NCBI GenBank assembly: GCA_041659765.1
Contig: JBAZXR010000001.1
Location: forward strand, 387,419-451,418
Source: Patescibacteria group bacterium
GTDB lineage: Bacteria; Patescibacteriota; Patescibacteriia; UBA9934
DNA length: 64,000 nt
Reading direction: 5' to 3'
Shown piece by piece: positions 4,177-56,708 of this stretch. Numbering within the stretch: position 1 is the first letter of the stretch; each line of letters starts with the position of its first letter. The position numbers were made by a program, and so were the translations under genes. Under the pieces are notes generated by a model. The model searched no databases, was not told the origin of the DNA, and worked only from the letters and a program-made list of their open reading frames with translations.

Positions 4177-4225
4177 TCCGTAGGCTTTACGGTTTACCCA
4201 TTAATACTTTATACTTACACAACCT

Positions 4226-4750
4226 ATGATCTCCATCAACAAATCGGCTCCTAGTTTTGAAAATGTGACCTCGTATACAAAGGGCGAATTCACTAAAACA
4301 AGCCTCAAGGATTACCAAGGCGGCTGGCTTATCTTATTTTTCTACCCACGTGACTTCACTTTTATCTGCCCTACGGAAATTAAGGGCTTCCAGAAAATGG
4401 AGGCAGACTTTGCCAAACTCGGTGCAAAGGTGGTCGGCGCGTCCACGGACTCTGAGTGGAGCCATAAAAACTGGTTCGAGAAAGACTTGCCAGAAGTCAC
4501 CTATCCTATCCTGGCTGATACCACGCAACGCGTCTCCAGAGACTACGGTGTGCTGAACGAAGATGACGGCAGCGCTGACCGCGGGCTATTCATCATTGAT
4601 CCAGAAGGAATTGTGAAGTACGCAGTGATTTCTGCTGGCTCTGTAGGCCGCTCGGTTAAAGAAGTTCTGCGAGTACTCGAGGCACTTCAGTCCGGCGAGC
4701 TGTGTCCTGTAGAATGGGAACCTGGCGAGAAGACACTCGGAAAAGCATAA
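4226..4750 (+). CDS. peroxiredoxin (AhpC/TSA family, 2-Cys type)
   Basis: FTFICPTEI peroxidatic-Cys motif and a C-terminal resolving Cys (GELCPVEWEPGEKTL). Confidence 0.85.
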   Translation: MISINKSAPSFENVTSYTKGEFTKTSLKDYQGGWLILFFYPRDFTFICPTEIKGFQKMEADFAKLGAKVVGASTDSEWSHKNWFEKDLPEVTYPILADTTQRVSRDYGVLNEDDGSADRGLFIIDPEGIVKYAVISAGSVGRSVKEVLRVLEALQSGELCPVEWEPGEKTLGKA

Positions 4751-4765
4751 TTTAGCTAATACTGG

Positions 4766-4815
4766 CTATATAAACAGAGAAACGGCTTGACAATAGGCCG
4801 TTTTTTTGATATACT
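4766..4815 (+). promoter_or_regulatory. peroxiredoxin terminator hairpin overlapping a near-consensus sigma70 promoter (TTGACA-N17-TATACT)
   Basis: AACGGC-ttgacaatag-GCCGTTTTTTT hairpin at 4781-4807. TTGACA lies at 4787-4792 and TATACT at 4810-4815 with a 17-nt spacer. Confidence 0.6.
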
Positions 4816-4819
4816 AATT

Positions 4820-5425
4820 CTTGTCGAATGTGGCGGTACGTAGACCAAGAGGGGCCCTGCCTCAACTAGCGAACACGCACCACACGTTAGGCACCCAAGC
4901 CAGGACCGCGAACCCCACGACCCTAACCGGAATTGTGCCCTCTGAAATTATGGGGGTGTGCGGTAGGAGCAAGGTACGCTGTTGGGAACGGCGATCGGAA
5001 CCTGGTGATTCTCTGCCAGACCGAACCTCAGACAACGAGTTAATACCTCGGGTCAGAGGTCAGATGATGAGATAGCAACGGAGGGTTCAAAAGCGCGCAG
5101 TAATTCAAAAACGCGCAGGACCCAGTCCAACCGGTGCGAACCGTGCTGGCCGGCCAAACCGACCAACAAGGAAGAGGACTAGGAAGCCGATGGTGGACGA
5201 GAGGACGCTCTCGTTAGGAAGCATCAGGCAACCGAAATATAAAAAGGCCGTGGATCCACGCACAGGCCAACGCGCACAAAAAATTAAACGCGCGTCTTGA
5301 CTCGCTCGTTACGTCCTAGGGTGACTTTCCAAGTTCGCCACCGCTGAGCTCGCTCGGCGATGACGGCTCGTAACGATCGCTTGATCCCCCACTTGCAAAC
5401 GATGCAAGGAGGGGGATTTCGCTTT
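4820..5425 (+). ncRNA. ~600-nt non-coding transcript of unresolved class (weak RNase P RNA-like motifs)
   Basis: No ORF of 60 aa or more for ~700 nt. It is bracketed by a strong promoter (4787-4815) and an intrinsic terminator (5384-5428). Internal segments GAACCCCACGACC and GGTGTGCGGTAGGAGCAAGG resemble RNase P RNA conserved regions (GAAACCCACGACC; GGTGCGGTAAGAGC...GGAGCAAGG) in the right order, but no convincing P4 helix was found. Confidence 0.4.
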
Positions 5426-5428
5426 TTA
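5384..5428 (+). terminator. intrinsic terminator for the non-coding transcript
   Basis: CCCCCACTTGCAAACGATGCAAGGAGGGGGA stem followed by TTTCGCTTTTTATA. Confidence 0.6.
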
Positions 5429-5439
5429 TAGATACGAGA

Positions 5440-5518
5440 ATAAATAAAAATAGTGTTGACGAGAAATTGTTAGGAGGTAATCCGACTCCAATTTCGAGAC
5501 AACACTATTTTTATTTAT
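5440..5518. repeat. 19-bp perfect inverted repeat with a 41-nt spacer; probable bidirectional terminator overlapping the pepA stop
   Basis: ATAAATAAAAATAGTGTTG (5440-5458) and CAACACTATTTTTATTTAT (5500-5518) are exact reverse complements. The loop contains an AGGAGGT element. Confidence 0.55.
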
Positions 5519-7014
5519 TCGAGATTCTGAACGTACTTGACGAGCGTCCCGACTCCGAATCCTGTTCCGCCTTTTCCAACATACGTCGACAGTGGTCTCT
5601 CGGCAAAAGCGGGGCCGGCGATGTCTAAGTGAACCCACGGCGTGTTGTCCTCCACAAACTCGGCCAAGAACAAACCAGCTGTCAGAGCTCCCCCGTAACG
5701 CGAAGTTGAAATGTTACGTAGGTCCGCCACCTCAGACTTAACAAGTGAGGCGTAGCGCTCAAAGAGTGGGAGCTCCCAGGTGCGCTCCCCCGCCTCTTCA
5801 GATGCGTCCAGAACTTCTTTCATGAGCTTCTTGTCATTCCCCATAGCTCCGGCTACTTCCTCCCCCAGCGCAGCGACTACAGCACCAGTCAGCGTAGCGA
5901 GGTCGATCATCGCGTCCGGCTTCACTTCGCGCTGAATGTACGTCATCGCGTCAGCCAGCGTGAGGCGACCTTCTGCGTCCGTATTCAGTACCTCGATTGT
6001 TTTTCCGTTCATCGATTTAACGACGTCTCCAGGCTTAGTCGAGTGTCCGCTTGGCATGTTCTCAGTGGCAGCGATAACGCCGTGGATGTTTACGCGTGGT
6101 TTCAATCTGGAAAGCGTAGCAAAAAAACCAAGCACGGCCGCTGCTCCCGCCATATCGCACTTCATGGTCATCATGCCGTCAGCAGGCTTGAGTGAAAGGC
6201 CACCCGAATCGAACGTCACACCTTTCCCGACAACAGTTACAGTCTTCTTTGAGGGTCTCGGCGATTTGTAAATCAGATGAATAAACTTTGGCTCTTGCCC
6301 ACTGCCTTTTGCGACAGATAAGTAAGACCCCATCCCGAGCTTCTCACATTCTGCAGCCTCGAGAATTTTTACGTCGACCATCTCGTTTGAGGACTTGGCA
6401 ATTTCGATCGCTGCGTCTGCAAGGAGTGAAGGTGTCATATGTCCTCCCGGCGTGTTCACGAGGTCACGAGCTACAGTCAACCCGTCGCACAACGTCTCGG
6501 CGTGTTCCACTGCCTTCCGCATGGCCAGTAACTGCCCACGTTCTTCCGTCGCGACTACGAACAGGTCGAGATGTTTATTGCTCGCTTCCTTCTTATACGT
6601 GTCGAACGAGTAGTCGCTCAGAATCGCAGCCGTTGCTGCGGCCTCTGCAATGGCTGACTTCGACAACTCCTTAGGCAAAATCAAACCAACAGACTTCATG
6701 CCGTTTTTTCTGGCCATGCCTGTAGCCATCCCAACGGCTTCACGAATGGCCTGGAGATTTGATGACTTCTTCTCCCCCAACCCGATCACAAGAATTGCGT
6801 CCGCATTGCCACCAACCGGGAGTTGGAGCGAAACCGTCTCGTACAGCTTCCCCGCAAATCCTGTCCGCTCAACAGACACCATGAATCTATCGACAAGTTC
6901 CGCCGGAATCCCCTTCACGTTCTTAATGCTAAAAGTCTTCCCGCCAAACACCGGAATAACAATCAGGTTCGCCTGACATGTTCCCGCCGTAGCCTTGAGG
7001 ACGTTGATCTGCAT
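5515..7014 (-). CDS. pepA: leucyl aminopeptidase, M17 family
   Basis: NTDAEGRLTLADA M17 signature, VGKGVTFDSGG, 499 aa. Confidence 0.85.
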   Translation of the reverse strand: MQINVLKATAGTCQANLIVIPVFGGKTFSIKNVKGIPAELVDRFMVSVERTGFAGKLYETVSLQLPVGGNADAILVIGLGEKKSSNLQAIREAVGMATGMARKNGMKSVGLILPKELSKSAIAEAAATAAILSDYSFDTYKKEASNKHLDLFVVATEERGQLLAMRKAVEHAETLCDGLTVARDLVNTPGGHMTPSLLADAAIEIAKSSNEMVDVKILEAAECEKLGMGSYLSVAKGSGQEPKFIHLIYKSPRPSKKTVTVVGKGVTFDSGGLSLKPADGMMTMKCDMAGAAAVLGFFATLSRLKPRVNIHGVIAATENMPSGHSTKPGDVVKSMNGKTIEVLNTDAEGRLTLADAMTYIQREVKPDAMIDLATLTGAVVAALGEEVAGAMGNDKKLMKEVLDASEEAGERTWELPLFERYASLVKSEVADLRNISTSRYGGALTAGLFLAEFVEDNTPWVHLDIAGPAFAERPLSTYVGKGGTGFGVGTLVKYVQNLE

Positions 7015-7073
7015 ATAGTGTATTTTTCGCGCATTTTTGGAGATTAGTCAACCCTTGTGTCTCTCCTATCTTT

Positions 7074-7442
7074 ATGATAGTGTTTACGGTTACTTTGGAG
7101 GTCCCCATGCTCCCCTTTTCAGCGTTCGTGCTCTCTACGCTCATTGTGGTAACTGCCTTAATAGATTTCTTCCTGCCACGCTCCACCTGTTTCAGGGAGT
7201 ACGTCATTGCCATCCGGGTGGCACTCTTAGTTCTTTCCGTCTTTACCGTCGCCATAGGTGGTCTGACAAAGGAGCAGATATACTTCACCATATCCTACAG
7301 CGCCATTCTCGGCGGTAATCTGCTGAGCCTGGCAACCGGGATCTATAGCTGGGTGCAGCCCCACGAGAAGTCCGCGCCAAACGGAAGGAAGTCCGTACCA
7401 GACGGAAAAAATGTTTTCGAGCCTCCAGGCAGTGACTCGTGA
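7074..7442 (+). CDS. hypothetical small membrane protein
   Basis: 122 aa with three predicted TM helices and no recognisable family. Confidence 0.3.
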   Translation: MIVFTVTLEVPMLPFSAFVLSTLIVVTALIDFFLPRSTCFREYVIAIRVALLVLSVFTVAIGGLTKEQIYFTISYSAILGGNLLSLATGIYSWVQPHEKSAPNGRKSVPDGKNVFEPPGSDS

Positions 7443-7490
7443 GCCGGCAGAACCACGCTGCCGGCAATTATTTTTAAAATATGCTAAGGC

Positions 7491-7518
7491 TTGACGAAAA
7501 TTTGGGTTACTGTATAAT
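7491..7518 (+). promoter_or_regulatory. sigma70 promoter with extended -10 (TTGACG-N16-TGTATAAT)
   Basis: TTGACG at 7491-7496 and TG-TATAAT at 7511-7518, upstream of a small basic ORF. Confidence 0.5.
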
Positions 7519-7544
7519 CCCGGCCATATTATTGGGTCGATTTT

Positions 7545-7682
7545 ATGCCACAACGACAACACACATCCCGCAAGGACCAGAACGCTATGTTCGCTGTTAA
7601 GCGAAAGGAGGCTGAGTTCCGCCGCCGCAAGCAGAAGGCCCTCCGTCTTGGAAAGCTGGAAGCGAAAGCCAAAGCAAAGTAA
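7545..7682 (+). CDS. small highly basic protein (45 aa; alternative 31-aa start at 7587 has an AAGGA SD)
   Basis: MPQRQHTSRKDQNAMFAVKRKEAEFRRRKQKALRLGKLEAKAKAK. It has its own promoter and a downstream hairpin with T-run (7688-7726). It is below the ORF-track cutoff. Confidence 0.35.
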   Translation: MPQRQHTSRKDQNAMFAVKRKEAEFRRRKQKALRLGKLEAKAKAK

Positions 7683-7781
7683 AAATGAACCGCCTATAGA
7701 CGAAAGTCAGGGCGGTTTTACTTTTGTGCGTCTTTTCGCTAAGGTAACGCGAGTTCATTCAACCCGTACACGGAGGCAATC

Positions 7782-8279
7782 ATGGTTACGCTTCCGTACT
7801 TCACGGACGTCCATTTTGATCAGGTCATGCGCCAAGAACTGCAAATGACCAGACTGGCACTGGCCTCAGAACGAAACATCATCTTCCGAACCTTTCCCTG
7901 TCTCATGGGTAATGAGTCACGGCGCGTCCTCAGAGACAAACGCTACCGCTTTCTCTGCTGGTTCATAGCCATGTGCGAACACTGGAATACGTGCGTCACC
8001 CTATGTTCGGAACTTGATGACATGGTCCGAGCGGATCTACTAGCCGAGAACGAGGACATAATGGTGGTGGCTCACGCGGTGTTCCAGCTCGAGGCATTAA
8101 AGCAAGCAGTCAGTACGCAAATCACGCTGGCTGAGCATTTGACCAGCGAGTTCGGTCCGATGGGCACAGCTCCCGCGACAAAAGGACGCCACGTCCGGAC
8201 AACCCACGTCAAAGAGCTCGCCATGTCACTCGAGCGAACCGCCGCTCGACTCCGCAAATTGTATCCTCATGGACCGTAA
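7782..8279 (+). CDS. hypothetical protein
   Basis: 165-aa ORF with no family recognised. Confidence 0.3.
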   Translation: MVTLPYFTDVHFDQVMRQELQMTRLALASERNIIFRTFPCLMGNESRRVLRDKRYRFLCWFIAMCEHWNTCVTLCSELDDMVRADLLAENEDIMVVAHAVFQLEALKQAVSTQITLAEHLTSEFGPMGTAPATKGRHVRTTHVKELAMSLERTAARLRKLYPHGP

Positions 8280-8313
8280 TCCGCCTTCCCAGCGCATGGG
8301 TCTGGCGGATTTT

Positions 8314-9333
8314 TTATAGCGCCTCTTTCAACCACTGTCCGTTTTCGAAAACAACCGTACCGTCGATCAGCACCCGCGTGACATCAGCAAAAACATCAAC
8401 GTGGAACTTTGAGTGCTTGCGCGAGAATCCCTCTTTTGCATAAATTGCATGTTTGCCACCGAGGGAGAAATGCACACCGCATTTACGCTCGTAGGTTCCA
8501 ATATCTGGCACCGTTCGCTCTTTAGTGAAGGCTCGGTTCAAACTGAGACCGAGCTCACGCAGGATAGCAATCTCTTCACGCACCTCTTCAAGGACTGCAT
8601 CAAATTCCGGTGTTGAATTTCTCGTGTCGACCACAACGCCATGCTCGACGATAATTTCAATAGGTTCAGGGGGAATATTCGTAAAGAAATGACGATCGCC
8701 AAACGCGTGCAGCTTTACCGAACCATTCACGTTCTCTAAGTTTTTTGGTTCAGTAAACACCTCGCCGATTGGGAACATGCCGCCCCAGTTTTTCATGCCG
8801 GAATAATCCCCCACGTTTAGCTTGGCATCTTCGAATGGTCCCTCGTAGCGGAGCTCGCATCCAGGAGACTCCACAACAATTTCTTTTGCGCTATCAACCT
8901 TCGCCTTGAGCTTTGAACCGACGCCTCGATAATAGTCCTTGTCGTAATGAAGCGAGTCTACGTAAATGCCGACGGTCTCGTCCGTATCCATGCGCGCCAG
9001 GTGCGGGTGCTCGATGACTTTCAGACCCTTCTTAAAAAGTTCGACCCGAATACGAAATTCGTTCAGACGAAAACTTCCAGACTGAATGAGGACGACAAGG
9101 TCGCCGGACTCAAGCGCCATCAATGATTCAACGATCTCCGTCGCGCGAAGCTCGTCAAAAAGAATATGCTCGGCAGCTGGCAAGGCTGATTTGTAGGCTT
9201 CAACAAGTACCTGGCTGAGCGCACACCCCTCATCAAAAACAACAATGGCCCTGTGTGATACGTCGTGTTCGAAAACGTCCCGCACGATGCCGAGGACGTT
9301 CTCTGCAGCTCTTTGTTGGAGGTCTTTTTCCAT
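8314..9333 (-). CDS. aminopeptidase, probable M29 (aminopeptidase T/AmpS-like) family
   Basis: 339 aa with a C-terminal HFSLGG...HVDVF...IDGTVVFENGQW pattern resembling the M29 metal-binding region. This is a tentative call. Confidence 0.4.
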   Translation of the reverse strand: MEKDLQQRAAENVLGIVRDVFEHDVSHRAIVVFDEGCALSQVLVEAYKSALPAAEHILFDELRATEIVESLMALESGDLVVLIQSGSFRLNEFRIRVELFKKGLKVIEHPHLARMDTDETVGIYVDSLHYDKDYYRGVGSKLKAKVDSAKEIVVESPGCELRYEGPFEDAKLNVGDYSGMKNWGGMFPIGEVFTEPKNLENVNGSVKLHAFGDRHFFTNIPPEPIEIIVEHGVVVDTRNSTPEFDAVLEEVREEIAILRELGLSLNRAFTKERTVPDIGTYERKCGVHFSLGGKHAIYAKEGFSRKHSKFHVDVFADVTRVLIDGTVVFENGQWLKEAL

Positions 9334-9399
9334 AAGGGAGAAGTTTACGCGAAATCCAAGAAATGGCCAACTTCACCCCTTCGGTGTCGTAAAACACTT

Positions 9400-10284
9400 T
9401 TAGGGAAGCCTGATTATCAGCTTGGCGCTTTCCAGTCCTGCATCTACTAGCGTCAGATGATACGGGCCAACATCCGCATTTTTGACTGTCACAGTCCCTA
9501 GGCGAACCTGAGAATTCACCCCGTCCAGGATAGCCGTGAACTCAGGCGACAGCTCCCCCTGCCAAATGCATTGAACGTCAGCAGGGCAACGGGAATCATT
9601 CACCCGATCAAGAGTGAGGGACAAATGGCTGTCGATCACTTTCTTCACGCCCGTAGCAAACGTAAAGGTCGATGATTTAGGCTGGCTAACCTCGTCTACC
9701 CTGTCACCAGGCATGGGCAAGGAGACACCGTTGTTGGCGACTGGGGCGGCCGGATTTAGCAAAACGATTTCAACATTTAACACGGTAGCGAACGACACCC
9801 ACAAAAAATATGGAACGAGCAGACCAGCAGCTATTTTTGAAACCTTCAGGTTAGCAAAAATCAGCACCAGTACGGAGAATCCAAGGATGCCGGCCGTAAC
9901 AGCAGCGGCAGTCAGATCATGGAGGCTGAAAAACACAAAACTCCACAACACGTTCAAGAGGCCGTTGGTGACGTAGAGCGGACCGACCGATTTAAAGAAG
10001 TGTTTTCCGGCGGCGTTCCAAGAAAAGATTATCGAGGCAGCTAAAAGAGCGAAGAGGAGAGTCCAAACTAGTCCAATAATGTTCCCAGCTGGCGCGTACG
10101 ACGGAAGACGCAGGGTTTGATACCATGGCGCGAGGCCGGACATAGTGAAGGCGCTCCCCAGTCCGCTAACCGCACAAACAAAGACTACGGCAGCAAAAAC
10201 CCGAATCCCAATTTCATTTTTTGGCATACTTTCACAGTATACCGTTCCTATGGACACACGTCGCCTAAAATATGTGAACGACAT
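9400..10284 (-). CDS. TspO/MBR-like tryptophan-rich membrane protein with a C-terminal extra domain
   Basis: LAPWYQTLRLPSYAPAGNIIGLVWTLLFALLA fits the TspO N-terminal consensus (WY..L.KP...P.....VW..LY), and five TM helices are present. The ~110-aa C-terminal soluble extension is unusual. The start may instead be the internal MPKNE. Confidence 0.4.
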   Translation of the reverse strand: MSFTYFRRRVSIGTVYCESMPKNEIGIRVFAAVVFVCAVSGLGSAFTMSGLAPWYQTLRLPSYAPAGNIIGLVWTLLFALLAASIIFSWNAAGKHFFKSVGPLYVTNGLLNVLWSFVFFSLHDLTAAAVTAGILGFSVLVLIFANLKVSKIAAGLLVPYFLWVSFATVLNVEIVLLNPAAPVANNGVSLPMPGDRVDEVSQPKSSTFTFATGVKKVIDSHLSLTLDRVNDSRCPADVQCIWQGELSPEFTAILDGVNSQVRLGTVTVKNADVGPYHLTLVDAGLESAKLIIRLP

Positions 10285-44396: not shown

Positions 44397-45407
44397 ATGG
44401 CCCAGATCCGCTACAAATCCCTGTTGTTCTTTCAGAAAAATCAAGTAATTTTGGAGGTTCCATTGGAAACTGCAATCGTCAATCGTCCTGAGGTTACCGC
44501 CATTACCTCATTCCGCCGGACCGGCGTCCTGATGTTCGAGCTCGAGATGTTCCGTCCCAACGGCGAGAACATCATCGCGCAGACGCACGCGTTTGCCATC
44601 TTGCAGAAATACTTCGAGGCCTCAGCGACCGACCAGCAGGTAGTCACGTTGCCCGTCGCCTTGAAAAAGGCACGCATCGGCCCGCTGGAAATAGATGGCG
44701 GCTATCAGGGCTTTCCAGCGAAGCTCTTGGTTCCTACACAGGCCCTCGCCACTCCAATCGCGTCGGGCTGTCTCCTGCAGAAGGCTCAGGAGACGGTGAA
44801 CCATCCGATCGTGAAGGCTCTGTCTGGAGAGATGCCCTACCAGGGCGAGCGGTACGACATGCACATCACCGGCTCTGACCGGAAAGGTGTGCTCATCGTG
44901 CGCGCCTCCCAAATCAATCTTGGCGACATAGGTGCACAGAGGCCGACGGTGAGAATCTACGCCCTGGACCCAAAGTGGAAGGGCGAAGAACCCTATCTGC
45001 GCGTTACAGGTCCGCCCGGCGATACATTCGCGCGTTCCGGTGCTTGCACGCATTTGCGCGAGCAAGTGAAGCGCGCAGAACGGGTGGCTGCGGAGATCAC
45101 GGAAGCTTTCCGCACCATGACCCCGGAAAATCCACCCCAGTTGCCGGACGACGTGAAGCGCGACCTCGACCTCCTCGGCGAACACGCACTCGACAACTGG
45201 TGCGAGGGAGCCGTCAAAGGGGATGCAAACGCGGTTCGGCAGTTAGCGGGCAAAGCCTGCTCCATCAGAGTGAGAATCCTGATGCGAGAAAAAATCAGCA
45301 ACGGTTCAGACTTCACGTCTGGATTCCCACTGATCAGTCCCGGCATTTGTATCCTCCCTCTCAACATGGCGAAAACGCTACTCGAACTCTGCGACGCCAG
45401 CCGGTAG
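44397..45407 (+). CDS. hypothetical protein (GC-elevated block)
   Basis: 336 aa with no family recognised. GC is visibly higher (~60%) than the baseline. A terminator hairpin GCGCCCACTGTATACAGTGGGCGC+TTTT lies at 45423-45458. Confidence 0.3.
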   Translation: MAQIRYKSLLFFQKNQVILEVPLETAIVNRPEVTAITSFRRTGVLMFELEMFRPNGENIIAQTHAFAILQKYFEASATDQQVVTLPVALKKARIGPLEIDGGYQGFPAKLLVPTQALATPIASGCLLQKAQETVNHPIVKALSGEMPYQGERYDMHITGSDRKGVLIVRASQINLGDIGAQRPTVRIYALDPKWKGEEPYLRVTGPPGDTFARSGACTHLREQVKRAERVAAEITEAFRTMTPENPPQLPDDVKRDLDLLGEHALDNWCEGAVKGDANAVRQLAGKACSIRVRILMREKISNGSDFTSGFPLISPGICILPLNMAKTLLELCDASR

Positions 45408-45542
45408 ACGTCGACCTTCCGCCACGAGCGCCCACTGTATACAGTGGGCGCTTTTACATTCCCTAAAAAATAAGACCCCAGCATTACTGCTGAGGCCGTA
45501 GGGGTGGTCCCGACGCACCGCGAGGCGCGCCGAGATCAGTGG

Positions 45543-46523
45543 CTAGTAACGGATGTTGCGGATACTGACGCGCTGCACGCCTTCGTTCTGCAGAACGATA
45601 CCCGCCTCGGTGTTCATCAGCATCTCCGCTGGCAACAGGTAGCCCGAATGGCCTGGGGTGAGCAGGGAGTCGTGGAAGTCGGTCATGACCTTCTGGAGCC
45701 GGCCTTCGTAGTCGATGGCCAGGCCGGGCACCACTTCGGCGGTCTTGTGGTCGTGGTCGTACACGGTGGCCTGCGCCATCATCATGTCCAGAGCCACTTC
45801 ACCGCACTCGAATCGGACACGGCACCACTCCGGGTACACATGTTCCTTCAGACGACGGGTGCCGCGGAAACGGAAGGTGATCCCGTCATCGCGCCGGCCC
45901 ACCGCGTCGTAGTGATCGAACCCGTCCTGGAGTTTCCAGGCCTCGAAACTTTGAATGCCGAACAGGGCATTCATCAGATCGACCTCGTGGTTGATGTGGT
46001 CGAGCAGGAGGCTGCGGGTGTGCTTCCAGGCGTTCGACGGCGCGTGGTAGGAGAAATCGAAGTCGAAGCTGACCACCTTGCCAAACCGCTCTAGGAACCC
46101 GGGCTTGTCCGGCTGCGAACCCAAGCCGTCTTGCAACCAGCAGATCGGTCTATCGAACCGGCGCGGGTGGCAGGACGTGAGGATAAGCCGCTTCTTCTCA
46201 GCCAGGTCGAACGCGGCTTCCAGCTGAGCGAGATCCTGACCAGGGACCATGAGCGGCTTCTCGCAGAAGACGTGCTTCCCCGCCACGAGCGCGCTCTCGA
46301 TCTGCCCCAGATGGTACTCATCCGGAGAACAGATCATCACGGCGACGATCTCCTTGTCGGCCAGGAGCTCTGCGAGCGAGGCGTATTTCTTGTTGCTCTC
46401 GATCATCTCCATGGCCTTGGGATCCGGGTCCCAAACGCCGTGAGTGGTGAAGTCATCCAGGTAGTTCTTGGCATGATGTTCCGCGTGCGTACCGCAACCG
46501 ATAATTCCCATCAAACGTGACAT
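45543..46523 (-). CDS. Gfo/Idh/MocA-family NAD(P)-dependent oxidoreductase
   Basis: GIIGCGTHAEHH Rossmann N-terminus and the EKPL motif (FCEKPLMVPG). Confidence 0.75.
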   Translation of the reverse strand: MSRLMGIIGCGTHAEHHAKNYLDDFTTHGVWDPDPKAMEMIESNKKYASLAELLADKEIVAVMICSPDEYHLGQIESALVAGKHVFCEKPLMVPGQDLAQLEAAFDLAEKKRLILTSCHPRRFDRPICWLQDGLGSQPDKPGFLERFGKVVSFDFDFSYHAPSNAWKHTRSLLLDHINHEVDLMNALFGIQSFEAWKLQDGFDHYDAVGRRDDGITFRFRGTRRLKEHVYPEWCRVRFECGEVALDMMMAQATVYDHDHKTAEVVPGLAIDYEGRLQKVMTDFHDSLLTPGHSGYLLPAEMLMNTEAGIVLQNEGVQRVSIRNIRY

Positions 46524-46719
46524 TGTTGTAGCCCTCCGTAAAATTAATGCGGCCTAATGTTAGCAAAAAAATACAAAAAAGTCAAGCAAAAAAACAAAGA
46601 ACCGACACCATTGCTGATGTCAGTTCCATGTGGCTCCCTAGATTATCTTTTTACCGAACTGGGGAGTATCTACGCCGAAGTGAAGATCGGCATGGATAAG
46701 ATGCGAGCAAATTGTGAAT

Positions 46720-46962
46720 TTATCCGATTGCCATCCCAACAATTTGCAAAATAAAACCTAAAGCAAATAGTAAGAATGCAAAGATTCCCAATCGGCGATC
46801 TTTTAGATGTTTTTTCTGCGTATAGTTGCCGTCTACATCCATTTGCGTAATAAAGTCGTCATCGACATTCCTCTTGGTGATTAGGAACGGATATATAGCC
46901 ACAATTGATGCAACCGTATTAAAGATCAACCCCGAGATAATTACACCGTTACTTAATGTCAT
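46720..46962 (-). CDS. small two-TM membrane protein, third gene of the AT-rich island operon
   Basis: 80 aa, lying 5 nt downstream of the preceding gene. Confidence 0.35.
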   Translation of the reverse strand: MTLSNGVIISGLIFNTVASIVAIYPFLITKRNVDDDFITQMDVDGNYTQKKHLKDRRLGIFAFLLFALGFILQIVGMAIG

Positions 46963-46967
46963 ATCTG

Positions 46968-47915
46968 CTAAAATAAACGTTCTAATCTTTCGGGTATCAA
47001 TACTTCCTCAAGATCCCCACCATCATTCCGTTTGTAGAAAAACAATTTTGCCAAATTCAAATTTTGATCCTGCAATTTTACTGCATCTTCCTGTTCAAGG
47101 CGATCTCCAACAACGATCACTACCAATCTCTTTATACCAAATATTGCAAGCTTCTCTTTGAATCTAGCGAGAATAAACCTTAACGCTTCATAATTTTTTG
47201 AAGTGAAATATCGAATTTCGATTGCGGTGGGTTTACCAAGTTTCTTAGAATAGAGAAGACCGTCTAGAATAAGATCCTTTTTTCCTTCCATTGTCAGTTT
47301 AACTTGGGATTTATATTTTTCACCATATCTCTCAATAAGCCTCGTCTGAAGAATCGTCTCAATTCTCGAAGCTTTTTCATACCGATCAACATTCTTTTGA
47401 TCTAGAGTGGCAGCGTCTTGTTTGTTGCTTAGTGCATTAGCGGATGTTTTTGAAGAAACCTCAACTTTCTTAGTTTTTGGCTCTGTCTCGATCATTTCCT
47501 GAATTGTTTTTTTCTTTGCTTCAGCATCAGTGGCACTTGATTCGACTACGGCGGCATTTATTCCATCTGATCCCACGTGAGTCATTCTATTTTTAATGAA
47601 GTGATCTATGGCATCGTGATGTCGCCATAGGATGATGAGAGCAATGAAAAGTATTGAAGCAGACCAAGAGGTTAAAATTATTTTGAGATATTCGTCGATA
47701 ACAAATAAAATTGTCTCCACACCAAATTGAACTTTGAATAAAGCGACTATTAATGAGATCGTAAACGCCAAAAGCAAACCATAAGGAAGCGCTACCTTAC
47801 AAAGAAGGTAAAATACCTTCGCAATAATCGTTCCACAGCTTTTTAAAAAGCCGAGGGTGTAATACCAAATCTTTCTAAAAATATTTTTCGTAAAAAGCAA
47901 GAGTCGTTTGACCAT
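46968..47915 (-). CDS. membrane-anchored protein (3-4 N-terminal TM helices plus ~170-aa C-terminal soluble domain), partner of the GHKL ATPase
   Basis: Its start codon lies 1 nt after the stop of the upstream 660-aa gene. The C-terminal domain has a D-x12-E-I-R segment (LILDGLLYSKKLGKPTAIEIRYF) that could be a degenerate PD-(D/E)xK-like core. Confidence 0.45.
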   Translation of the reverse strand: MVKRLLLFTKNIFRKIWYYTLGFLKSCGTIIAKVFYLLCKVALPYGLLLAFTISLIVALFKVQFGVETILFVIDEYLKIILTSWSASILFIALIILWRHHDAIDHFIKNRMTHVGSDGINAAVVESSATDAEAKKKTIQEMIETEPKTKKVEVSSKTSANALSNKQDAATLDQKNVDRYEKASRIETILQTRLIERYGEKYKSQVKLTMEGKKDLILDGLLYSKKLGKPTAIEIRYFTSKNYEALRFILARFKEKLAIFGIKRLVVIVVGDRLEQEDAVKLQDQNLNLAKLFFYKRNDGGDLEEVLIPERLERLF

Positions 47916-47916
47916 A

Positions 47917-49899
47917 TCAAACTAAATTAACACTTGCTTCAGTGACGATTTCTTCAGGAGAAGCGAAGTCCTTGGCTATCAAATTTTGATCGATTTGTAA
48001 TTTGTCTTGGATAAACTGATGTCTGAGTTTTGCGGCGGTCAAAACCTCGCTCCATGTTCGAACGTAAATTTTATAGTTTCCTTTATTGAAAACTAAGCCC
48101 TTATTTTTCTCGCCATGATTTTTATTATTTTCAATCTCATCTTCTATATAACTATCCATGCGGTTGCCCACAAGAATAAATTCCCAATGCATATTTGAGG
48201 CATTGAAATCAGCAACCGACAAAATTACACTCATGTATTTTTTGACCTGAGATAACTCTTCCTCACCCAAGATTACAGATGGTCTCTTTAATTCAACGAC
48301 AATATTTTCAATTGTACTTATTGTTTTATTTTGCCTGCACAAGAAAAGATCCATTTCCTTATTTTTGTCCCTATGCTTAATAGAAATCGTTTCTATCTCC
48401 CCACCAAGATGCTCATGATAATTAGCGAGTGCTTTTTCAAATTTTTGTTCGGTGGATGCTAATAGATGGTATTGCTCTCCAAAAATCCAATAATTTAGAT
48501 CAAGAAATTTTTGGAGATGATCACGTTCGTTTGCATTAAAAGAAGTTTTGAAAACTAAATCATTCAACTGATCAAGAGCAATGAAACGCTCTTTGATCAA
48601 ACGCGTGGCATGAATAATATTTGATAGATGCGTCACCTTAAGTAACTCGCACAATTCATCAATATCTTCTGAATCCAATTCAAGTACAGCCTTGAGAATC
48701 TCAAATATCTTTTCTTTCTCTCCCGATTCCAACAATACATTTAATAGTCCAACCAACGTCTTCTTCTCCTCGATGGAAGAAGTGGAGAAAATCTTTGGTT
48801 GAACTTGATACAGTCCTTTGATTACTTCTTCAAGCTCATTCTTTTTAACAAGATCCCATTGGTCTGTACCAAATTTCGGAATAATCCCTTTGCTCTCATA
48901 TTCCTCAATCAACTGTTTCGCGTAGTTAGCCAAAAATGGCTTACGTTTTTTTCTTAAAAACTGAGTTAATTCTTTTTCTAAAAACTTAAATTCTGCGTCA
49001 GATTTAGAGTGACCGAAAAGAGTGCGATCTTCTTCCCCAGAACCGCCCTCGGCATTAAACTCATCGAAATAATCGCTCTTAATGTAGACGCTATGATAAA
49101 AGCTATCGCCTTTGTTATTTAATTTTGTTGTCTCTTTCCAGATCTCATCATCTTTTGAATTAACAAGGTAATAGCGGGAATACTCGTCGTGAAGTTGCCT
49201 ACTCCAACGAACAAAATTAATTTCAAACTCTGTATTTGATGCAGGATAAATAAATTTTGTTGAAGCTTGCTCTCCAATTATTGAAGCGTAGTCGAGTGGC
49301 TTGCCGTTGATAAGAACGGCGAATCCTCGTTTTTTGTTTAATTCCAAAAACCAGCCGAATTCAGCTTTTAAATATGCTTCTACCTTATCCTGAAACATCG
49401 TAAACGTGAGGGAGTTTACAGAGTCGAAGGTAACGGTAGTCCCAGTATTTTTTTCAGCAGACTTCTTAGGGGTCGAAGAGTTGGTCTCGTAGTGGTTTAA
49501 CTTTTGAGATTCGATGGTGATGTCGTATTCAAATACCTCGTCTTTGTTTTTAAATCTTGTAGTCCATACAGCCCTCTCTGAAAAAGTAAAAAAGGTAAGG
49601 CGACCAATCCCGTTTCTTCCGTGCGTTAAGGACTTGTTCCTGGAAGGACTTTTAGCCATTTTTTCGGATTGAAAAAACGGTCTAAATTTTTGATCAAGAA
49701 GGCTTTTATCGATACCGCTTCCATTGTCGGAAATACTCAGGCTTCGAATCCCACCAAGACCCTCCACGTCCACATCTATTCTGACATCCGTTGCGCCAGC
49801 ATCGAAGCCATTCCAAATAAATTCAGCAAAAGCTTCTTCGGCGGTGTATTTACGTAAGATTTGCTTTATCCCTCTTTCGTTCACTTCAATGATTGCCAT
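47917..49899 (-). CDS. GHKL-superfamily (MutL/MORC-like HATPase_c) ATPase with C-terminal PD-(D/E)xK-like region
   Basis: Bergerat-fold motifs are present in order: N-box EFIWNGFDAGA (ExxxNxxDA), G1 ISDNGSGI (DxGxG), G2 GRNGIGRL (GxxGxG) and G3 NTGTTVTF. The C-terminal MDLFL...IVVELKRP fits a D...ExK nuclease core. The region is AT-rich. Confidence 0.6.
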   Translation of the reverse strand: MAIIEVNERGIKQILRKYTAEEAFAEFIWNGFDAGATDVRIDVDVEGLGGIRSLSISDNGSGIDKSLLDQKFRPFFQSEKMAKSPSRNKSLTHGRNGIGRLTFFTFSERAVWTTRFKNKDEVFEYDITIESQKLNHYETNSSTPKKSAEKNTGTTVTFDSVNSLTFTMFQDKVEAYLKAEFGWFLELNKKRGFAVLINGKPLDYASIIGEQASTKFIYPASNTEFEINFVRWSRQLHDEYSRYYLVNSKDDEIWKETTKLNNKGDSFYHSVYIKSDYFDEFNAEGGSGEEDRTLFGHSKSDAEFKFLEKELTQFLRKKRKPFLANYAKQLIEEYESKGIIPKFGTDQWDLVKKNELEEVIKGLYQVQPKIFSTSSIEEKKTLVGLLNVLLESGEKEKIFEILKAVLELDSEDIDELCELLKVTHLSNIIHATRLIKERFIALDQLNDLVFKTSFNANERDHLQKFLDLNYWIFGEQYHLLASTEQKFEKALANYHEHLGGEIETISIKHRDKNKEMDLFLCRQNKTISTIENIVVELKRPSVILGEEELSQVKKYMSVILSVADFNASNMHWEFILVGNRMDSYIEDEIENNKNHGEKNKGLVFNKGNYKIYVRTWSEVLTAAKLRHQFIQDKLQIDQNLIAKDFASPEEIVTEASVNLV

Positions 49900-50038
49900 A
49901 AGCTTATACCGATTCTATCAGTTTAAGCAGACTTAGCAACCGACTCTCGTAGTACAAAAACGTATTGAATTTATGGCTTAATTAATGCCTCCATTCCGTC
50001 AACAAGTTTCACTTCAAATTTGCTCAATCCAAGGAGCA

Positions 50039-50358
50039 ATGGATCCCGTAGCGTACGCCAGCGAGGTTCAGAGGCTTGAGGGGGAGCTTCAGGAAGTCGA
50101 AAAGAATCTCATAGCCACAAAGGAAACAGCCGAAGAAATGCTTAACACCATTTTAGAGTTTTCCGAACTCGTAAAAATGGCTAGCATCACATATAAATAC
50201 GCGAATCCTCGTGAACGTCACAATCTTCTCACGCAAGCGTTTACCGAACTCAGATTAGCGAACGATGACTTTACATACGATCCAAAAGAGGGCTTTTTAA
50301 AGCTTTTTCAGCGACACGATAAAAAGAAAACACACCTTGATGAACAAGATGTGGTTTC
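50039..50358 (+). CDS. hypothetical ORF that runs without a stop into the tRNA-Asn gene (possible island-border remnant)
   Basis: AAGGAG RBS 8 nt upstream of ATG 50039. The frame stays open through the tRNA, with a stop only at ~50420, so the true C-terminus is uncertain. Confidence 0.25.
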
Positions 50359-50361
50359 TGG

Positions 50362-50433
50362 CTCGGGGGGTGGGGCTCGAACCCACGACCCAAGGATTAA
50401 CAGTCCTTTGCTCTGCCACTGAGCTACCCCCGA
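50362..50433 (-). tRNA. tRNA-Asn (anticodon GTT), CCA encoded (to 50359)
   Basis: Minus-strand sequence TCGGGGGTAGCTCAGTGGCAGAGCAAAGGACTGTTAATCCTTGGGTCGTGGGTTCGAGCCCCACCCCCCGAGCCA. It has a 7-bp acceptor stem, GCTC/GAGC D-stem, anticodon loop CTGTTAA and T-loop TTCGAGC. Confidence 0.85.
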
Positions 50434-50479
50434 ATATTAGGCTATTTCAACAATAACCCGTCGGTAGTATAAAGAGCGT

Positions 50480-50860
50480 ATGCAAAAAAGGCAAGTAAAT
50501 GAATTGCGTACTGTTTTTGGAGTTTTGGCCATCATCAGCCTTCTTTTTGGACTTCTCATCTTTTTCTTTGTCCACAGCGGTTTTCTCCGTAACTACGGCG
50601 GTGATGTGGTGGCGGTTACTTTCCTGTATTCGCTGCTTAGACTCACCCTTAGCCCAAAACCAAAAACCGCGGCGGGCATGGTGTTTGCCGTGGCGGTGTT
50701 CATTGAAGTTCTTCAGGCGCTCGTCAGCCTCCCCCATTCAACCGTAACAACTTTAACGCTCGGGAGTACGTTTGATCCCCTGGACCTGCTCGCCTATTTC
50801 CTGACCGTACTTGCGCTCTACTTGCTCGACAACGGTTTGCGCGCTTCTCTTGCAAAGTGA
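50480..50860 (+). CDS. small membrane protein, possibly DUF2809 family
   Basis: 126 aa with four TM helices and an RNYGGDVVAVTFLYSLL motif. Confidence 0.35.
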   Translation: MQKRQVNELRTVFGVLAIISLLFGLLIFFFVHSGFLRNYGGDVVAVTFLYSLLRLTLSPKPKTAAGMVFAVAVFIEVLQALVSLPHSTVTTLTLGSTFDPLDLLAYFLTVLALYLLDNGLRASLAK

Positions 50861-53853: not shown

Positions 53854-53936
53854 ACGGCCATCAGATTAGCATAAAAAAAGAGCGGGCGCCCATGGACCGT
53901 GAAGTCCAAGGGCACCCGCGTGAGAGAGCTGACTGC

Positions 53937-56513
53937 CTACTTGACGCTGCCGCCGTAGCGCTTGCCGGTACCGTCCGCGACATAGGTGATGTCACCCGTG
54001 TTCTGGCTGACGGTGTACCCGCCGGTCGGACCGGTGGCGCTCAGGATGTGGCCGCCGTGCACGTTGCTGGCACACCAGTCGGCGTCGTTGTTCAGCCAGC
54101 ACTGGATGGACAACGTGTCGTTGCGCATGGTGGTCAGCTGCACGGTCACCACGGACCCGCTGCGGATGGCCGTGGAAACCACCGCGCCCGTATTGACGTT
54201 CTTCACCTCGAAGTTGTTGAGGGTCATGCCCGTCGCCGCGGCGTCGAGCGTGAACGTCCAGGTGTTCGTGGTCCGGCCAGTCGAGCTCGTACCGTCCTGC
54301 CCGTTGCAGTCCTGATCGTGGCCGTCGACCGAGAGGTCGAGGGCGCCAGGGTACGTGTCGCTCCGGGTGTCATCGCAGTCACCCGAGGCCGCCACGTAGC
54401 CGGCCGGCTGGGAAGCCTGCGCGACCGAGACGAGCGGGTTGCCGAACTTGTCGCTGTCACCGTCCTTGTACCAGGTGTTCGTGGACGGCAGCGAACAGAC
54501 CAAGTCCCCGCCCGAGCAATCGTCGTCCACGGCATTGCCGCAGACCTCCACCGCTCCCGGCTTCACGGCGGCATTGCCGTCGTTGCAGTCGGTCTTGTCC
54601 GTCACGTAGCCCACGGGCTGGGAAGCCTGCAGGAGGGTGACGAGCGGGTTGCCGAACTTGTCAGCGTCCTTGTCTTCATACCAGGAGACCGCGCAGACCG
54701 CGTCACCGCCCGAGCAGTCCTCATCCAGGTTGTTGCCACAGGTGTCCGTGGCCCCGGGGAACTGGAGCGGGTTGCTGTCGTTGCAGTCATCCACGAGCAC
54801 GGTGCTCGCCGCCTCGTTGGCGTCCAGACAGTCCAGATCCGTACTGATGATCGCGGTGGACTGGTTGGCCACGGACCGGTGCTTGTCGTTGTCGCCGTCC
54901 AGGTAGCACGACTCGAGCGAGTCGCAGTTCTGGTCCACGCCGTCACCGGCCTGTTCGATCGCACCGGGGTGGATCATGGCCCTGATGTCGTCGCAGTCGG
55001 TGGCGGGGTCCGTGGCCTTCGCCTCGAACGGATCCGCGCAGCTGACGTTGGCGCTGCCGATCGGCAGGTTCAGGCTCGTGCGGAACGTGTCGTCATCGAG
55101 GTCAATGTAGCAGACCTCCGTCCCCGTGCAGTCCTCGTCGATCTCGTTGCCGATGATCTCAGACGCCAGCGGATGGACCGTGGCCTTCGTGTCGTCGCAG
55201 TCGGTCGAGAGCGCCACGTAGCCCGCGGGGGCCACATTGACGTTCACGGTGGTCGGCTGCGACAGGTTTCCGTACCCATCCACGTCCGCGTCCTTGTAGA
55301 ACGTGAACGTGCTGGTCGAGCACACGTTGCCTTCGTCGATTCCGCTGACGCAGTTGTTGTCCTGCGCGTCGCAGATCTCCACCGCCCCAGGCTTCACGGC
55401 GGAATTGCCGTCGTTGCAGTCCGTGGCACTGGCCACGTACCCAGCCGGCTGGCCAACCTGCACGGTGAACACGAGCGCGTTCCCGAACAGATCGCCGTCC
55501 TTGTCCTGGTACCAGGTGGTGCCATTCACGCACACGTTCCCTTCGTCGATTCCGCTCACGCAGTTGTTGTCCTGCGCGTCGCACACCTCGGTCGCGCCGG
55601 GCTTCACGGCGGAATTGCCGTCGTTGCAGTCCGTCGAGTTGTTCACGTAGCCCGCGGGGGCAACGTTCACATTGACCGTGGTCGGCGACGAGAGGTTCCC
55701 GAAGCCGTCCGTGTCCACGTCCTTCCAGAACGTGTAGGTGTTGCTCGAGGGGCCGTCCTTGCCGTCGCAGTTCTGGTCCACGCCATCGACCGTGGGGTCG
55801 GGGGCGTTCGGATTCACCGCCGCATTCGCGTCGTTGCAATCCGTGTTGTTGGCCACGAACCCGACAGCCGGAACGGCGCTCGTACCGCCGGCGGAATTGC
55901 CGAAGGTGTCGCCGTCCCCGTCCTTGGAGTACACCACGCTGCCCTTGTCGGAGGTCAGCGTGTTGCAGTCATCGTCGAGGCCGTTGTTCAGCACCTCCGC
56001 GCGGTCCACGTTGATGGCCGCGTTCGCGTCATCACACTCGCCGGCGGGCTCGGAGAAGTAGGCTTCCCCGCTGCTCTCGCAGTCACCGTCGGGCGAGGTG
56101 AAGAACGTCTCCAGCCGGTGACCGTCGTTGTCACCGTCCGTCCAGCACTTGACGGAGTTCGCGTTCGGCTCGTCCACCTGCAAGTTGCAGTTGTCGTCGT
56201 AGCCGTTCTGCTGCTCCTGCGCGCTCGGGAAGATGGCGCTATCCGCGTCATCGCAGTCGCCGATCCGCTTGGACTTGCCAGCGGGCACGACCGTGACGCA
56301 CGTCGGAGTCTCCATGGCCCCCCAGCCGTCACCGTCTTCATCGTCCGTCACCGGCGATTCCGTAAGGGTACAGTACGCGTGGCGGGCGGCGTCGTTCGGA
56401 TCCGCCTCGTGCACCGTGGCCCCGCTGTCAAGAGCGGTGTCCTCGGTCAGGTCCTGGTTGTCACACGCGCCGATGGAAAGGAAGCCCATGAGCACGAACA
56501 GTCGATTCTTCAT
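53937..56513 (-). CDS. secreted Cys/Asp-rich repeat protein (MopE-like putative metal-binding repeats), in a GC-rich island
   Basis: Signal/lipobox MKNRLFVLMGFLSIGAC. There are at least 12 copies of a ~45-aa unit (GYV...TDCNDGNSAVKPGA.E.CD.QDNNC.SGIDEG). It is 858 aa, GC is ~65-70% by eye, and a large antisense shadow ORF exists. Confidence 0.55.
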   Translation of the reverse strand: MKNRLFVLMGFLSIGACDNQDLTEDTALDSGATVHEADPNDAARHAYCTLTESPVTDDEDGDGWGAMETPTCVTVVPAGKSKRIGDCDDADSAIFPSAQEQQNGYDDNCNLQVDEPNANSVKCWTDGDNDGHRLETFFTSPDGDCESSGEAYFSEPAGECDDANAAINVDRAEVLNNGLDDDCNTLTSDKGSVVYSKDGDGDTFGNSAGGTSAVPAVGFVANNTDCNDANAAVNPNAPDPTVDGVDQNCDGKDGPSSNTYTFWKDVDTDGFGNLSSPTTVNVNVAPAGYVNNSTDCNDGNSAVKPGATEVCDAQDNNCVSGIDEGNVCVNGTTWYQDKDGDLFGNALVFTVQVGQPAGYVASATDCNDGNSAVKPGAVEICDAQDNNCVSGIDEGNVCSTSTFTFYKDADVDGYGNLSQPTTVNVNVAPAGYVALSTDCDDTKATVHPLASEIIGNEIDEDCTGTEVCYIDLDDDTFRTSLNLPIGSANVSCADPFEAKATDPATDCDDIRAMIHPGAIEQAGDGVDQNCDSLESCYLDGDNDKHRSVANQSTAIISTDLDCLDANEAASTVLVDDCNDSNPLQFPGATDTCGNNLDEDCSGGDAVCAVSWYEDKDADKFGNPLVTLLQASQPVGYVTDKTDCNDGNAAVKPGAVEVCGNAVDDDCSGGDLVCSLPSTNTWYKDGDSDKFGNPLVSVAQASQPAGYVAASGDCDDTRSDTYPGALDLSVDGHDQDCNGQDGTSSTGRTTNTWTFTLDAAATGMTLNNFEVKNVNTGAVVSTAIRSGSVVTVQLTTMRNDTLSIQCWLNNDADWCASNVHGGHILSATGPTGGYTVSQNTGDITYVADGTGKRYGGSVK

Positions 56514-56708
56514 CTCTACCTCCTGGCTGGTTAGCCGTTACACTGTCTTCTCGAACTCACACACTAATGAAAGAAGTCCCCAAATGCGTTCGATGGAACA
56601 TTTGAGGAACGGGTGACCTTATAGAATTTACTGACTATTGTCAAAAGATTCGGCTTCGATCAGCGAAAAATGCACACAAGGCGTTGATTAGTGGCTATTA
56701 TTAGCAAA

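Follow-up and report, generated by a model that had tools for sequence, protein, structure and literature searches.

Does the compact set of three genes that lies 3′ of a tRNA-Asn gene in a Patescibacteria group bacterium (contig JBAZXR010000001.1) represent a new three-component defence system, as a first-pass annotation of the sequence had proposed, or a known kind of defence gene in unfamiliar company? We address this question for the locus at positions 46,524 to 50,433 of the window, by which we mean the whole 64,000-nucleotide (nt) stretch that was analysed, with coordinates counted from its first letter. The explanation that we consider probable is that an acquired cassette lies within a decayed serine-recombinase element at the tRNA-Asn, that its core, gene A, encodes an anti-phage nuclease of the GHKL-Shedu/paraMORC3 kind that functions alone, and that genes B and C are passengers. 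What looked like a new three-gene system would then become a divergent member of a validated single-gene defence family accompanied by two hitch-hikers. The genes, and the domains of gene A, are as follows.

47917..49899, minus strand: gene A, 660 amino acids (aa), GHKL-type Shedu / paraMORC3-like ATPase-nuclease (open reading frame (ORF), Pfam, structure model and hhalign).
49030..49899, minus strand: residues 1-290 of A, GHKL ATPase and Hsp90/MORC-like middle domain (S5/transducer-type).
48040..48492, minus strand: residues ~470-620 of A, PD-(D/E)xK nuclease domain (E475, D517, E536xK538, Q551).
46968..47915, minus strand: gene B, 315 aa, N-terminal transmembrane (TM) helices and a C-terminal PD-(D/E)xK-fold domain.
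46720..46962, minus strand: gene C, 80 aa, orphan predicted 2-TM protein (two hydrophobic segments).

Gene A encodes a self-contained protein in which a GHKL ATPase with its middle domain is connected through a helical linker to a Shedu-like PD-(D/E)xK nuclease. Pfam HATPase_c_3 matches residues 18-144 (5e-17), and weaker matches are given by HSDR_N_2 (residues 485-562) and the PADLOC SduA model (E 0.028). Across 20 homologues with 43-55% identity, the GHKL motifs (E26/N30/D33, D58xGxG62, G94..G97xG99 and G153-T154) do not vary, nor does the nuclease pattern E475-D517-E536xK538-Q551, and these residues are still invariant in homologues of 23-24% identity from a Pasteurella phage and a Salmonella plasmid. 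The catalytic residues of A are thus intact. In the AF2 model (pLDDT 80.8) residues 1-290 fold into the GHKL and middle domains and residues 475-615 into an alpha/beta nuclease domain, the two parts being joined by a long helical linker at residues 300-470. The Bergerat-fold motifs and the C-terminal D...ExK nuclease that the first-pass annotation had read in the 660-aa protein are therefore both borne out, the latter by an invariant E-D-ExK and by a nuclease fold in the model. The top 50 Foldseek matches of the model are all the N and middle domains of Hsp90/TRAP1. A sequence search of the PDB with the nuclease-domain profile gave no match, and with the full-length profile it returned solely the GHKL motif I-II region of MutL/Mlh1, about 50-60 residues. 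Unlike Hsp90, MORC and MutL, A carries a PD-(D/E)xK nuclease and lacks the Hsp90 C-terminal dimerisation domain, the MutL C-terminal endonuclease and the CW or coiled-coil modules of MORC proteins. Canonical Shedu SduA (Bacillus cereus 8ti8/8ti9; E. coli 8ps4) has a nuclease domain structurally similar to that of A, with R.BspD6I (9.2) and NucS (9.1) scoring similarly, and differs at the N-terminus, which is Whirly/sPC4 or NRF rather than a GHKL ATPase.

This architecture, which had been put forward as undescribed, has precedents in the literature. Iyer, Abhiman and Aravind described paraMORC3 in 2008 as GHKL and S5 domains joined to a C-terminal restriction endonuclease (RE) fold with E-D-ExK, sporadic in distribution and often stand-alone (PMC2292703). 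Shedu homologues with HATPase_c_3 and an Hsp90-middle-like "N24" domain were catalogued in 2023 by Gu et al. (10.1101/2023.08.10.552793), and VcSduA, encoded on VSP-II(WASA) of Vibrio cholerae, is a GHKL-type Shedu (type I-D) that has been validated against phages (Adams et al., Nat Microbiol 2025, PMC12137116). VcSduA acts as a single gene, protecting E. coli from T1-like phages and V. cholerae from phage X29; the defence is lost in the E27A and K557A mutants, the protection is non-abortive, and homologues occur in about 1.2% of genomes (PMC12137116). The protein was modelled as a dimer, the authors finding no well-supported tetramer model (PMC12137116), in contrast to canonical Shedu, which is a tetramer.

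The relation of A to this family was determined by hhalign against four full-length, plasmid-borne relatives of VcSduA, including one at 61% identity, which stand in for the full VcSduA sequence. The match is colinear over 521 columns (probability 97%, E 1.1e-10, 20% identity) and aligns D517 of A with D526, E536xK538 with E554xK556 (VcSduA K557) and Q551 with Q574, which makes A a genuine but distant homologue of VcSduA. On sequence grounds the A family forms a subfamily of the paraMORC3 / GHKL-Shedu kind that is sister to VcSduA, and the first reading of A, in which a GHKL ATPase is joined to a PD-(D/E)xK nuclease from a family of defence type, is supported. Both proteins are single polypeptides of about 660-680 aa with N-terminal GHKL motifs I-IV, a middle clamp-like domain, a helical linker and a C-terminal D...ExK nuclease; the motif I glutamate is residue 26 in A and 27 in VcSduA, the catalytic lysine is residue 538 (predicted) and 557, respectively, and both are found as stand-alone, mobile genes that sometimes lie inside type I restriction-modification (R-M) loci. 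They differ in motif I, which is FEAVxNSIxS in VcSduA and AEYIWNGFDA in A, and in setting, as A lies in a Patescibacteria metagenome-assembled genome (MAG) and is followed by two extra co-oriented genes. With paraMORC3, which was compared through its description and figures rather than by sequence, A shares the GHKL, S5-type and E-D-ExK RE-fold domains, the wide but sporadic spread and the stand-alone or R-M setting. paraMORC3 was described as prevalent in Proteobacteria and Bacteroidetes; members of the A subfamily are frequent in Patescibacteria, Firmicutes, Chloroflexi, Cyanobacteria and archaea as well.

We propose a model for A that extends what has been established for VcSduA, Shedu and GHKL enzymes. 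By analogy with these proteins, the N-terminal GHKL module would dimerise on ATP and, together with the Hsp90/MORC-like middle domain, would form a clamp for a nucleic-acid or protein ligand. ATP binding and hydrolysis would then control the C-terminal PD-(D/E)xK nuclease by way of the long helical linker, and the activated nuclease would cut invading DNA directly, without killing the host. DNA as the target and activity in a Patescibacteria host are likewise suggested by analogy. Genes B and C would be co-transcribed passengers of the cassette rather than obligate partners of A.

The distribution of A is consistent with such a single-gene function. More than 1000 clusters of homologues were found, the best 120 all being full length, with identities of 39-55% in Patescibacteria, Bacteroidota, Firmicutes, Cyanobacteria, Chloroflexi and others. 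Relatives are present in at least 543 GTDB species representatives, archaea included, and on 46 plasmid records and in 2 Pasteurella phages, where they are annotated only as "ATP-binding protein" or hypothetical; PHROG 6203, of unknown function, matches A over its full length (4.7e-73). Neighbourhoods were sampled in 80 fetched loci, from which the nearest 140 neighbours were clustered and scanned with Pfam and PADLOC. No universal partner gene emerged among these 140, and tblastn detected no homologue of B or C within 6 kb of an A homologue in any of the 80 loci. Of 76 loci, only 2 have a tightly coupled gene downstream of A; in 7 of the 76, a gene following on the same strand within 200 bp encodes a TM-like segment, and no analogous membrane partner was found downstream of A homologues in this set. 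At the genomic level, gene A stands alone without a conserved partner. The immediate neighbours that do recur are HsdS (9 loci), HsdR-type (7) and HsdM (3) genes, typically in the order hsdR-A-hsdS, with serine recombinases, HipA, AbiEii-like AAA, PIN and NERD proteins also being seen. Such a distribution and context are characteristic of a defence gene that is mobile and self-contained.

The recurrence of Hsd proteins raises the possibility that A is instead an accessory ATPase-nuclease of R-M systems, needing an R-M partner encoded elsewhere for the discrimination of self from non-self. In about 10% of cases the A homologue is flanked by hsdR and hsdS within a type I R-M operon, and in one case it comes after a type ISP enzyme; a close VcSduA relative on a V. 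fluvialis plasmid follows hsdM-hsdS, and an accessory role in R-M was the original proposal for paraMORC proteins (Iyer et al. 2008, PMC2292703). However, about 90% of A loci have no R-M neighbour, stand-alone paraMORC3 genes without linked R-M were noted by Iyer et al. alongside those in R-M neighbourhoods (PMC2292703), VcSduA alone protects E. coli, and the cassette described here holds no R-M gene. We regard a dependence on R-M as very unlikely. That about a tenth of the family lies in type I R-M operons nevertheless bears on how these nucleases may discriminate self from non-self.

Individual loci illustrate the variety of these settings. The order hsdR-A-hsdS is seen, mostly in Bacteroidota, in loci L014, L018, L019, L021, L036, L059 and L065 (about 3200-9400) with gaps of 14-35 nt, and a Saccharibacteria MAG (L008) has the order hsdM-A-hsdS. 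On plasmid pP88_e of Phaeobacter inhibens (L093, 2929-4917) the gene for a type ISP restriction/modification enzyme is overlapped at its end by an A-type gene, and a Phaeobacter strain carries both GHKL-nuclease subfamilies on different plasmids (pP88_e, and NZ_CP010727.1 in the VcSduA hit list). On the V. fluvialis plasmid NZ_AP028130.1 (L094, 1-4953) the 61% identical VcSduA relative lies directly after hsdM, hsdS and a "Shedu immune nuclease family protein" gene, an order that places two Shedu-type nucleases in tandem inside a type I R-M locus. The temperate Pasteurella phage Pmp14 (L091, 3932-5890) encodes a 652-aa A homologue, annotated as hypothetical, as an apparent insert between its tail genes and the tape-measure gene.

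Gene B encodes a rare protein, anchored in the membrane and of PD-(D/E)xK fold, that travels independently of A. Its 2-3 N-terminal hydrophobic helices are followed by a juxtamembrane motif that does not vary (HHDAIDHFIKNRMT..G..G), a linker of low complexity and a C-terminal domain in which E186, D218-G219 and E233-I-(K/R)235-Y are invariant across homologues. The TM helices and soluble C-terminal domain previously attributed to the 315-aa protein are thus present, with 2-3 helices in place of the 3-4 that had been counted. The AF2 model (domain pLDDT about 80-85) shows an alpha-beta-beta-beta-alpha-beta RE-fold core. The window copy has Arg235 (EIR; codon 47212-47214) where most homologues have the putative catalytic lysine (EIK), a substitution shared with one other homologue (P0126). 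Card1/Can2, Cas4, CdiA-CT toxins and type II restriction enzymes share with B this core and the Glu, Asp and E-x-K/R at canonical positions; in contrast to them, B has an N-terminal membrane anchor, no CARF or other sensor domain and no sequence family, and its window copy has Arg for the catalytic Lys. A word-indexed search returned only 6 homologues of B, an exhaustive profile search of 1.84 billion proteins returned 125 representatives (14 below 1e-30), and no family was matched in Pfam, PADLOC, NCBIfam or PHROGs.

In small-genome bacteria, members of the B family are repeatedly found 3′ to tRNA genes and next to R-M or GmrSD genes. Among the contexts are a CfrBI-type R-M system with N6_N4 methyltransferase and RE_CfrBI (L001), SLFN_AlbA_2 (L087), and a locus in which the B-family gene is convergent with a GmrSD_N/HNH protein and an EcoRI-type methylase (L100, 148-3473); on the evidence of the first and last of these, B tends to sit in small defence clusters. 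B-family genes follow tRNA-Glu(TTC) by 16 nt (L086, 5913-6879) and by about 190 nt (L098, 4735-5861), tRNA-Ser(CGA) preceding, which gives the family a second location next to a tRNA. In L003, about 550 bp separate the B homologue from a recombinase C-terminus that shares homology with the remnant in the window described below. The neighbours of B homologues are not homologous between contexts, and an A homologue was beside B in none of the 9 contexts inspected. Gene C has the two hydrophobic segments that had been seen in it, and no homologue of it was found in Pfam, PADLOC, NCBIfam or PHROGs, nor by tblastn in any fetched locus.

Could A, B and C nonetheless form a lineage-specific three-component system, with A as sensor or first effector and B and C as a membrane effector, anchor or regulator, for example tethering A at the site of DNA entry or causing abortive membrane damage? 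The 1-nt and 5-nt spacers, the common strand, the single promoter-like and terminator-like sites, the GC content of 0.36-0.37 common to all three genes, the defence-like fold of B and its defence-like neighbours elsewhere all speak for such a system. Against it stand the absence of co-occurrence elsewhere (0/80 A loci, 0/9 B contexts), of an analogous membrane partner downstream of A homologues and of any homologue of C, the ability of the validated relative VcSduA to work as a single gene, and the Arg at the usual catalytic Lys in the window copy of B. As neither A-B nor A-C recurs, the grouping appears incidental; the claim of a conserved three-gene system falls with these counts, and we consider a lineage-specific one quite unlikely. 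B may be an independent membrane-associated nuclease-fold module. That it defines an undescribed membrane-anchored PD-(D/E)xK nuclease family, acting on DNA at the membrane as an independent defence or exclusion module of one gene or recruited together with C as a partner of a GHKL-Shedu nuclease, is a reading we hold as unlikely.

How the cassette came to lie at this position is suggested by its boundaries, for which the following features are required.

50359..50433, minus strand: tRNA-Asn(GTT), anchor of the integration site (ARAGORN; Rfam RF00005, 70.5 bits; same neighbour in L088 and L085).
50331..50353, minus strand: terminator-like hairpin and T-run directly after the tRNA (consensus match only; sequence conserved in L088 and L085).
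50036..50422, plus strand: C-terminal remnant of a large serine recombinase, last 128 codons (BLASTP against the intact L088 gene).
49912..49939, minus strand: promoter-like site TTGCTA-16-TAGAAT with TG, upstream of gene A (consensus match only).
46598..46627, minus strand: terminator-like hairpin, 13-bp stem and TTGTTTTTTT, 93 nt after gene C (consensus scan).

The first-pass annotation had found no integrase, which is incorrect, as a plus-strand ORF at 49985-50422 overlaps the tRNA-Asn and from about 50036 onwards is derived from a serine recombinase whose 128-codon C-terminal remnant abuts the tRNA. This part corresponds to residues 436-563 of an intact 563-aa large serine recombinase (58% identity, E 2e-49, BLASTP) with Resolvase (1.3e-16) and Recombinase (1.8e-14) domains, found in locus L088. 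L088, recovered by a metagenome scan with the conserved 401-aa right-flank protein as query, is syntenic with window positions 59154-50036 and has the same tRNA-Asn with the intact recombinase beside it; genes A, B and C were not found in this locus. The single close homologue of the ORF, in L085, likewise overlaps a tRNA-Asn, its nucleotide sequence being 75% identical over 412 nt and its flanks unrelated, and the similarity of the window to both L088 and L085 ends at about 50033. Taken together, the match to residues 436-563 and the breakpoint at 50033 indicate that the cassette replaces the N-terminal ~435 codons of the recombinase. The cassette proper therefore spans about 46.55-50.03 kb, so that the AT-rich block noted at the outset holds but its reach up to the tRNA does not. 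The proposal of horizontally acquired cargo at a tRNA-associated integration site is supported, L088 having the tRNA-Asn and recombinase and no cassette.

The integrative element at the tRNA-Asn is decayed and probably immobile. No direct repeat of the tRNA 3′ end was found at the far boundary within 46300-50600, which is to be expected, since serine recombinases use short dissimilar att sites and the element is decayed. The 145-aa ORF has no usable family in Pfam, PADLOC, NCBIfam or PHROGs, and a weak tblastn match to it in L042 was rejected as spurious because it falls in an alpha/beta hydrolase. The last ~20 codons of the recombinase (..SGSGGGARTHDPxINSPLLCH) are antisense to the 3′ half of the tRNA-Asn in the window (50359-50422), L088 (13401-15092) and L085 (32-430). 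As this holds in three unrelated contigs, the attachment site probably lies within the coding sequence of the recombinase itself.

Composition sets the cassette apart from its surroundings. GC content is 0.34-0.40 over 46.5-49.7 kb, with flanks of 0.60 on the left and about 0.49 on the right, and a windowed GC check identifies the AT-rich block 3′ of the tRNA-Asn as the lowest 3.8-kb stretch of the window, at 0.377 against a mean of 0.508 (standard deviation 0.036), about 3.6 standard deviations below. This confirms the compositional deviation first reported, as the ORF coordinates confirm the tight minus-strand arrangement of the three genes, with spacers of 1 nt (A-B) and 5 nt (B-C) and all three 3′ of the tRNA-Asn. 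The promoter-like site lies inside cassette-specific sequence, and it and the two terminator-like hairpins plausibly bracket an A-B-C transcription unit; the number of promoter and terminator matches that the consensus scan gave in the region is not above shuffle expectation. The hairpin after gene C probably marks both the end of the operon and the left edge of the cassette. Immediately left of it GC climbs to 0.6, in a flank that encodes a GFO/IDH/MocA oxidoreductase. An Rfam scan of 44-52 kb found nothing beyond the tRNA.

These observations also decide the fate of a further explanation, in which the locus would encode a housekeeping or signalling complex, either a repair ATPase of the MutL type or a histidine kinase that acts with membrane partners. 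It draws on weak N-terminal matches of A to the ATP-binding domains of MutL and of histidine kinases. The MutL model TIGR00585 scores 27.5 bits against a cut-off of 180, with only residues 26-76 matching, and A lacks the MutL C-terminal dimerisation/endonuclease domain. As for a histidine kinase, the ATP-binding domain of A is N-terminal, no HisKA/DHp or receiver domain is present, the equivalog matches are far below their cut-offs and the operon has no response regulator. Furthermore, A has a patchy distribution that includes plasmids and phages, the syntenic relative L088 lacks all three genes, and the GC of the block is 13 points below the genome average. On the strength of the sub-cut-off scores, missing domains, patchy distribution, absence in L088 and low GC, both readings were rejected, and a housekeeping role is exceedingly improbable.

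An acquired cassette built around a stand-alone GHKL-Shedu/paraMORC3 nuclease is thus the explanation that we retain, and several observations weigh against it. Identity of A to the VcSduA clade is only about 20%, and the first 399 aa of VcSduA itself align to the A profile with a probability of only 51%, over motifs II-IV alone. Five carriers of the A family (Paraflavitalea, Anthocerotibacter, Dehalococcoides, Paenibacillus and Deinococcus) have no occurrence in the VcSduA hit table of the preprint, which lists 543 hits with the first 500 aa of each protein; Paraflavitalea soli appears as a WonAB hit and is therefore in the database of the VcSduA paper, coverage being confirmed for that genus alone among the five. 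The published VcSduA hidden Markov model apparently does not pick up the A family, and the absence of these carriers from the table points to a separate subfamily. The split from VcSduA is deep, so that function is extrapolated across it: an anti-phage role for the A subfamily, and for a Patescibacteria host, would be carried over from VcSduA by analogy. Pfam SduA_C is matched in 3 of 12 A homologues with a best E of 0.0014, which is sub-threshold, and the PADLOC SduA match is marginal. The 1-nt and 5-nt spacing of A, B and C behind one promoter-like and one terminator-like site would fit functional coupling, and the presence of some A relatives inside R-M operons makes dependence on an R-M partner possible. 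As regards the domain models, the four VcSduA relatives, including the one that is 61% identical, also fail Pfam SduA_C, and the marginal DUF4263 score of A is thus no argument against membership.

The GHKL-Shedu/paraMORC3 kind contains a large, deep-branching subfamily, present in at least 543 species that include many bacteria of the candidate phyla radiation (CPR) and archaea. Since models based on VcSduA apparently miss this subfamily, the prevalence of this type of defence is probably underestimated. Beside its size and divergence, residual interest attaches to the family of gene B as a rare, unannotated, membrane-anchored nuclease fold.

Two further regions of the window deserve mention. 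Left of the cassette, at 44397-46523, lies a GC-rich block (0.58-0.62) with a 336-aa ORF without a family and the GFO/IDH/MocA oxidoreductase gene; this block is a second compositional anomaly, and successive insertions may have carried the variable region at the tRNA-Asn as far as about 44.3 kb. To the right, a stretch of about 2.6 kb at 53892-56534 has a GC of 0.65, is open on both strands (880 and 858 aa) and is internally repetitive. With many staggered tblastx matches to L088 (7400-9500), it probably encodes a repeat-rich protein that is conserved in L088.

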